From the NCBI RefSeq assembly GCF_044324875.1, contig NZ_CP172185.1: 64,000 bases of DNA. One strand, written 5' to 3'. The notes beneath the pieces are model-generated. The model had not been told where the DNA came from. It saw only the letters and a program-made list of their open reading frames with translations, and did not search any database. The stretch comes from Escherichia coli. Its GTDB lineage: Bacteria > Pseudomonadota > Gammaproteobacteria > Enterobacterales > Enterobacteriaceae. Shown one piece after another: positions 47,025-47,291 of this stretch (positions are counted from its first letter, which is position 1; each line of letters opens with the position of its first letter). Made by a program: the position numbers and the translations under genes.

Positions 47025-47028
<4 letters not shown>

Positions 47029-47291
47029 AAGAGTTTTTATTTTTATTTCACTCCACGGTCGGCGTCATACAAACCCGCAAGGCGTTGCAGGCAGCGGGCA
47101 TGACTTTTCGCGTCAGCGATATTCCCCGTGATTTACGCGGCGGCTGCGGGTTATGCATTTGGCTGACCTGTCCCCCCGGCGAGGAAATACAATGGGTGAT
47201 CCCTGGGCAGACCGAAGCGATATATTGCCAGCAGGGCAGCGACTGGCAGTGCGTGGTGCATTACGATTCAGAAGCGTCAACCAGGCAATAA
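47025..47291 (+). CDS. Small Cys-containing protein (DUF3343-like), translationally coupled to yjiL
   Basis: 88-aa ORF whose ATG overlaps the yjiL stop (ATGA); normal GC. The family assignment is from memory only. Confidence 0.45.

Follow-up and report, generated by a model that had tools for sequence, protein, structure and literature searches.

The open reading frame at 47025..47291 (+) of the window, the 64,000-nt stretch of E. coli DNA analyzed here, is almost certainly ytiA, the third and last cistron of a yjiM-yjiL-ytiA unit. By association, we propose, with a probability of about one half, that its product may be a single-cysteine sulfur/selenium (S/Se) carrier or adaptor that works with the YjiL-YjiM reductase. 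Public annotation already contains the gene, names its family and gives it the putative carrier label; since ytiA is present in the reference annotation it carries little weight as a discovery, and its value is that of a pointer and a modest lead. Specifically, this three-gene unit of E. coli joins double-cubane [8Fe-9S] reductases with DUF3343 'Se/S carrier' proteins in a tractable host, and published comparative genomics ties each of the two families separately to SelD and selenium use.

The frame is intact, with 88 codons and a stop, and lies behind two genes on the same strand: yjiM (45100..46251, +), the first cistron, with coordinates taken from the K-12 annotation and matches to NCBIfam NF040772 and Pfam HGD-D, and yjiL (46261..47028, +), encoding a BcrAD_BadFG-family activase/reductase and placed by alignment to the K-12 annotation and by RefSeq annotation. 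As the sequence-only reading had noted, the ytiA ATG (47025-47027) overlaps the yjiL TGA (47026-47028) as ATGA at 47025..47028 (+), which is a signature of translational coupling. Direct reading also places a Shine-Dalgarno-like GAGGA motif at 47013..47017 (+), within the 3' end of yjiL and 7 nt before the ytiA ATG. Translation of ytiA is predicted to be coupled to yjiL through this overlap, and YtiA would then be made in step with YjiL. The same reading had described the GC content of the ORF as backbone-like, which agrees with values of 53.9% for ytiA, 52.9% for yjiM, and 56.1% for yjiL; the spacer downstream has 32% and the espX6 gene beyond it 35%. Between 44.8 and 47.8 kb of the window, we found no Rfam families, no terminator-like sites, and no excess of promoter-like sites.

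In the K-12 reference NC_000913.3, the gene is annotated as b4715 (YP_009518833.1; RefSeq WP_000657675.1), 'uncharacterized protein YtiA'. Of 5426 complete E. coli genomes, 5385 contain a match to a 551-nt query around ytiA, and the match is annotated as ytiA, as a DUF3343 domain-containing protein, or as a putative Se/S carrier protein in 29 of 30 RefSeq E. coli genomes sampled down the match ranking. The idea that the ORF might be unannotated is thus contradicted by its b4715 entry in K-12 and by this sample. The one exception is strain STEC306 (NZ_CP091016.1), in which a Mu-like prophage carrying HTH repressor genes and a Mu transposase (approximately 3170-6170 of locus L006) interrupts ytiA some 45 nt into the gene, making this strain a natural ytiA knock-out. 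Over the query, the window DNA is 100% identical to strain A10, whose product is the 88-aa WP_000657678.1. In the same neighborhood of K-12, a 12-codon gene, ytiE (b4823), is annotated just upstream of mdtM (8693-8728 of locus L057).

YtiA scores 49.2 bits against Pfam PF11823 (DUF3343, Se_S_carrier), above the gathering cut-off of 25 (E=3.6e-13), with residues 4-59 aligned to profile positions 2-57 of 69, and its 88 residues fit the description of a small stand-alone protein of ~80-100 aa. This is the family that had been suggested for checking; in an NCBIfam search, no model matches YtiA. The allele in the window is described here as a DUF3343/PF11823 'putative Se/S carrier' on the basis of Pfam, RefSeq, orthology to b4715, and an AlphaFold2 model.

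We scanned genomes with a narrower family alignment, taking one genome per species, and recovered 38 loci, all from Enterobacterales and distributed over 11 genera (Escherichia, Citrobacter, Cedecea, Klebsiella, Raoultella, Kluyvera, Phytobacter, Enterobacter, Atlantibacter, Kosakonia, and Hafnia). The ytiA frame is intact, at 78-89 aa, in 35 of these species loci, while one is cut by a contig end and two are frameshifted. Both yjiM and yjiL lie directly upstream in 37 of the 38, and in the remaining locus, a contig of 4.1 kb, the 3' end of yjiL is still visible. At the 36 loci where the ytiA/yjiL overlap can be scored, it spans 4 nt in 26, 1 nt in seven, 8 nt in two, and 2 nt in one (Hafnia), and most orthologous loci have a purine-rich AGAG/GAGG motif at a comparable distance before the ytiA start. 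What follows ytiA varies with the genus: in E. coli it is yjiK or espX6, and in Klebsiella and Kosakonia it is a gene encoding DUF2955. This indicates that yjiM, yjiL, and ytiA travel as a unit.

Pairwise comparison by the Nei-Gojobori method gave dN/dS values for ytiA of 0.10-0.40 over the whole gene and 0.04-0.30 over codons 1-61 (the latter range covering pairs that carry substitutions), compared with ~0.05 for yjiM and 0.06-0.22 for yjiL, with dS above 1 between genera; codons 1-61 contain no indels across genera. ytiA is under purifying selection. The small cysteine-containing ORF proposed from the sequence is accordingly real, as judged by the Pfam match, by the frame kept in relatives, and by a dN/dS below 1, and the suggested tests of conservation and Ka/Ks came out in its favor, with no loss of frame across the 11 genera of the kind that would have spoken against it. 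The two frameshifted copies, in Citrobacter amalonaticus AUH_CA_2023_1 (L047) and Enterobacter sp. EA-1 (L048), break right after the DIP motif (approximately 7000-7250) at loci where the yjiM matches are partial too, and reflect either pseudogenization of the whole unit or error-prone assemblies. These frameshifts, together with the prophage in STEC306 and a poorly conserved C-terminal third, are what could be cited for a chance frame or a decaying remnant without function. That explanation is refuted by conservation, and we consider it extremely unlikely given a family score above the Pfam cut-off, a dN/dS well below 1, a frame maintained in 11 genera despite synonymous saturation (dS >1), and the presence of the region in nearly every complete E. 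coli genome.

Sequence conservation in YtiA centers on one loop and one cysteine. The protein contains cysteines at positions 41 and 44 (CGLC), 49 (CPPG), 68 (YCQQ), and 76 (WQC), so that all four motifs listed from the translation are present. The block D32-I-P-R-x-L-R-x-G-C41-G-L43 shows no or almost no variation among 19 enteric orthologues; in the window, it reads D-I-P-R-D-L-R-G-G-C-G-L and is encoded by codons 32-43 (47118..47153, +), with the TGC codon of Cys41, the presumed active residue, at 47145..47147 (+). When the comparison is extended to 34 family members, down to ~20% identity, Phe8, Pro34, and Cys41 are invariant and Leu21, Gly42, and Tyr67 nearly so, leaving Cys41 as the only cysteine invariant family-wide. 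Lin et al. 2015 (PMC5322559) likewise reported one highly conserved cysteine in DUF3343. Cys49 is mostly kept, and Cys68 and Cys76 are not conserved. Cys44 is kept in core Enterobacteriaceae (the CGLC pair occurs in the window sequence as well as in 18 of 19 Enterobacteriaceae orthologues), and is replaced by Ser in Hafnia and by Gly or Ala at loci L118-L121, and is variable in the wider DUF3343 family.

The near-universal CGLC pair within Enterobacteriaceae would suit a model in which YtiA acts as a dithiol/disulfide mediator for YjiL/YjiM electrons, in the manner of a miniature thioredoxin. We consider this model improbable and have dropped the CxxC reading, because Cys44 is not conserved outside core Enterobacteriaceae, being replaced in Hafnia, at the L118-L121 loci, and in many distant members. 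The single invariant Cys41 instead indicates that the relevant chemistry is that of a single cysteine and not of a CxxC pair. Of the two roles offered for the ORF at the outset, a redox or a sulphur-carrier-type accessory, the second agrees with the 'putative Se/S carrier' label of its family, while the CxxC form of the first is weak because only Cys41 is invariant across the family. In addition, YtiA does not belong with thioredoxin-like proteins by its cysteines, as Cys44 is not conserved, or by its model, which does not have a thioredoxin fold. Electrons reach activases of the YjiL type from ferredoxin or flavodoxin, and the potentials involved lie far below those of thiol/disulfide couples, which also counts against a dithiol mediator.

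The AlphaFold2 model of YtiA (mean pLDDT 85.8) adopts a ferredoxin-like alpha/beta sandwich in which the conserved loop sits between strands 2 and 3 (model strands 28-32 and 43-49). Residues 31-40 have a mean pLDDT of 78, the lowest of the folded part, and Cys41 lies at the end of this conserved, probably mobile DIPRxLRGGCGL loop. The predicted fold is a generic ferredoxin-like one with no close solved relative: a PDB sequence search with YtiA returned nothing significant (the best match, at E=0.05, is spurious), and the best Foldseek matches to the model are PII/GlnK proteins, with an E of about 0.02 and a TM of about 0.5. A search of YtiA against PF01206 (TusA/SirA) gave no match at E<=1, and the cysteine is surrounded by GGCGL with no CPxP. 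The PII/GlnK matches, and a conserved loop located where PII proteins carry their T-loop (strands 2-3), could be taken to mean that YtiA is a PII-like regulator that binds a metabolite or nucleotide and modulates the YjiL ATPase or YjiM through its loop. What lies behind that reading is generic fold similarity only, and we think it very unlikely that YtiA is such a regulator.

The two upstream genes appear to encode a low-potential reductase system. YjiM scores 531.8 bits against NCBIfam NF040772 (cut-off 350), the model for double-cubane-cluster-containing anaerobic reductases, whereas it reaches only 93 bits against HadC (cut-off 700) and 21 bits against HadB (cut-off 750). It is 39% identical to the C. 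hydrogenoformans double-cubane protein DCCP in structure 6ENO (E=6e-75), relative to which its cluster cysteines (Cys40, Cys59, Cys78, Cys93, Cys108, Cys273, Cys302, Cys304, and Cys335) are invariant, and the yjiM-yjiL-ytiA unit contains no gene for a second HGD-D-type subunit. On these matches, YjiM is predicted to be a double-cubane [8Fe-9S] reductase (class II DCCP; for the class, see PMC7317905) and not a 2-hydroxyacyl-CoA dehydratase. Both the older yjiM annotation as a 'putative dehydratase subunit' and the initial description of the pair as dehydratase and activase are therefore set aside, the dehydratase equivalog cut-offs being far from reached. YjiL, which scores 362 bits against TIGR00241 and matches Pfam PF01869 at E=6e-76, is the predicted ATP-dependent electron-transferring activase/reductase partner of YjiM.

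We examined how generally YtiA accompanies such systems by scanning metagenomes with a YjiM/DCCP alignment, which yielded 80 loci. In all 58 metagenomic loci with a YjiM of at least 79% identity and with sequence beyond yjiL, a DUF3343 gene immediately follows yjiL. Contig ends truncate another seven loci, and one (L122) has a partial yjiM match and neither yjiL nor DUF3343. At 11 low-GC loci (25-44%; L124-L129, L132-L135, and L137), where YjiM is 61-69% identical, none has a DUF3343 gene within 8 kb, even at E<=50 with filters off; yjiL is adjacent in 10 of these and absent from L134. Because none of these 11 nearest non-enteric pairs has a DUF3343 gene, the double-cubane system works without an adjacent copy, and we rejected YtiA as an obligatory third subunit of double-cubane systems. 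YtiA is an accessory protein specific to the enterobacterial form of the unit, not a universal subunit. At another locus (L050), a DUF3343 gene again follows an HGD-D and BcrAD pair; compared with the window, its YjiM is 82%, its YjiL 63%, and its YtiA 35% identical, and YtiA evolves much faster than YjiM and YjiL. A scan of viral contigs with YjiM gave one locus, lacking both activase and DUF3343, and a word-indexed homologue search with YjiM had only enteric sequences among its matches. Three entries of a public protein library (P0125, P0142, and P0144) are fragmentary gene calls of 217-220 aa that combine a YtiA-like segment with C-terminal sequence of a BcrAD_BadFG activase. They most likely arose through frameshifts or contig edges at the ATGA overlap and are probably not true fusions, and we made no Rosetta-stone use of them.

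Outside the enteric group, DUF3343 genes keep different company. One distant member immediately follows TusA (L141); others come after a YedE-like Sulf_transp gene and TusA (L142), after a TusA-DsrE fusion (L052), or before YqeC (L054), and two more (L055 and L056) overlap by 8 nt the end of an Aminotran_5 gene of the cysteine-desulfurase/Sec-lyase type. Purely by association, these placements beside TusA, YedE-like, desulfurase-type, and YqeC genes point to a carrier role. In the literature, DUF3343 is found near YedF, Sec lyase, and SelD, and a role in Se/S trafficking has been proposed from comparative genomics (PMC5322559). The duf3343 gene is also among those most often overlapping selD (10.1101/2022.04.13.486033), and in a STRING table the partners of DUF3343 in Slackia include a CoA-enzyme activase and a 2-hydroxyglutaryl-CoA dehydratase subunit (PMC5322559). 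On the side of the enzyme, Haft (10.1101/2022.07.06.499078) counts 955 of 970 NF040772 proteins in SelD-containing genomes. Such Se/S trafficking neighbors (YedF/TusA, Sec lyase, SelD, YedE) are absent next to ytiA in all enteric loci, as are any selenium or sulfur genes adjoining the unit in the window; this neighborhood is an associated feature of PF11823 and not a formal criterion for membership. A literature search returned no experimental work on YtiA or other members of DUF3343, the term 'ytiA' leading almost only to the unrelated ytiA (rpmEB) of B. subtilis.

Together, these observations suggest how a single-cysteine carrier or adaptor could work. Cys41 would be loaded with sulfur or selenium, forming a persulfide or perselenide, and YtiA would hand the bound atom to, or receive it from, the ATP-driven, low-potential YjiL-YjiM reductase, in which YjiL would serve as the electron-pumping ATPase and YjiM as the double-cubane [8Fe-9S] enzyme. 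Such an exchange may involve direct contact of YtiA with YjiM or YjiL. A bolder version, which we regard as unlikely, is that the Cys41 persulfide or perselenide is itself the physiological substrate or product of YjiM, so that the unit reduces protein-bound S(0) or Se(0) to sulfide or selenide, for example feeding SelD. If true, this would provide the first physiological substrate for the orphan double-cubane enzymes and would explain why DUF3343 and NF040772 both track SelD-containing genomes.

Alternatively, YtiA could be a maturation factor and not a catalytic partner, donating or chaperoning S/Se solely for the extra bridging sulfide of the YjiM cluster. This possibility draws on the position of a carrier-type family beside an enzyme with an unusual cluster, yet most DUF3343 genes are found next to genes for TusA, YedE, or a desulfurase at loci that lack a double-cubane gene, and the closest non-enteric YjiM-YjiL pairs lack a DUF3343 gene nearby altogether (0/11). 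Moreover, work by Jeoung and Dobbek in 2018 reportedly saw the C. hydrogenoformans enzyme gain its cluster in heterologous production without a dedicated partner, which we also count against a maturation role. A function confined to the cluster thus seems unlikely, even though a selenium-bridged NF040772 cluster is given as a formal possibility, from SelD co-occurrence, by Haft (10.1101/2022.07.06.499078).

The 3' part of ytiA in the window, from about codon 62 to the stop (47209..47291, +), represents a divergent haplotype associated with the espX6 insertion. Compared with K-12, codons 1-61 differ by one synonymous and no non-synonymous change, whereas from codon 62 to the end dS is about 2.1 and dN 0.40, and the protein has 88 rather than 85 aa. 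A recombination or haplotype boundary therefore falls inside ytiA near codon 62 (divergent segment at approximately 47209-52016 of the window): identity to K-12 is ~97% upstream of the boundary and ~80% from there through yjiK and yjiJ. Consistent with an espX6-type 3' end, the match extends over at least 80% of the query in 637 E. coli genomes, and in most others it reaches only to about 47235. The 88-aa allele occurs in espX6-bearing strains, with 99% protein identity in O157:H7 strain 7409, and has no gene symbol in RefSeq. The insertion itself, at 47604-49694 (+) between ytiA and yjiK, is of low GC (35%) and encodes a 696-aa pentapeptide-repeat protein whose O157:H7 counterpart is annotated as the T3SS effector EspX6. 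espX6 is absent from K-12, where the gap between ytiA and yjiK is 64 nt. Its 3' end contains a 24-nt tandem repeat in 7.6 copies (49400-49582) encoding KQANDSTD-type repeats, and the lengths of EspX6 in the window (696 aa), A10 (716 aa), and O157:H7 strain 7409 (731 aa) are consistent with variation in repeat copy number.

Comparison with known systems places YtiA as follows. Its closest counterpart is K-12 ytiA, the same gene in the same position with the same ATGA and identical residues 1-61, from which the tail in the window has diverged beyond codon 62. Relative to the PF11823 members described by Lin et al. 2015 (PMC5322559), YtiA is alike in size, in its single invariant cysteine within P-x-[PR]-x5-6-C-G, and in its predicted alpha/beta fold, but where typical DUF3343 genes adjoin TusA/YedF, YedE, Sec-lyase/desulfurase, YqeC, or selD, the enteric subfamily stands behind a double-cubane reductase and its activase. 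The likeness to the TusA/SirA/YedF carriers (PF01206) lies only in the proposed sense of a small protein of the cytoplasm relaying S/Se through a single essential cysteine: DUF3343 genes are often immediate neighbors of TusA, but YtiA has neither a PF01206 match nor CPxP, and TusA-like structures are absent from its best fold matches. PII/GlnK proteins share with the YtiA model a ferredoxin-like beta-alpha-beta-beta-alpha-beta core and a long loop that connects strands 2 and 3; this structural likeness is weak and comes with no sequence relationship, and YtiA has an invariant cysteine in place of nucleotide-binding motifs. Finally, the DCCP/DCCP-R system of Carboxydothermus hydrogenoformans (6ENO, 7YYL; PMC7317905, PMC9351452) includes in DCCP a homologue of YjiM. 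As published, that system has two components, whereas the enterobacterial unit adds a gene that goes unmentioned in the available parts of PMC7317905 and of the Haft preprint, including the latter's text on NF040772 (10.1101/2022.07.06.499078): a third cistron, predicted to be translationally coupled, that encodes a DUF3343 protein.
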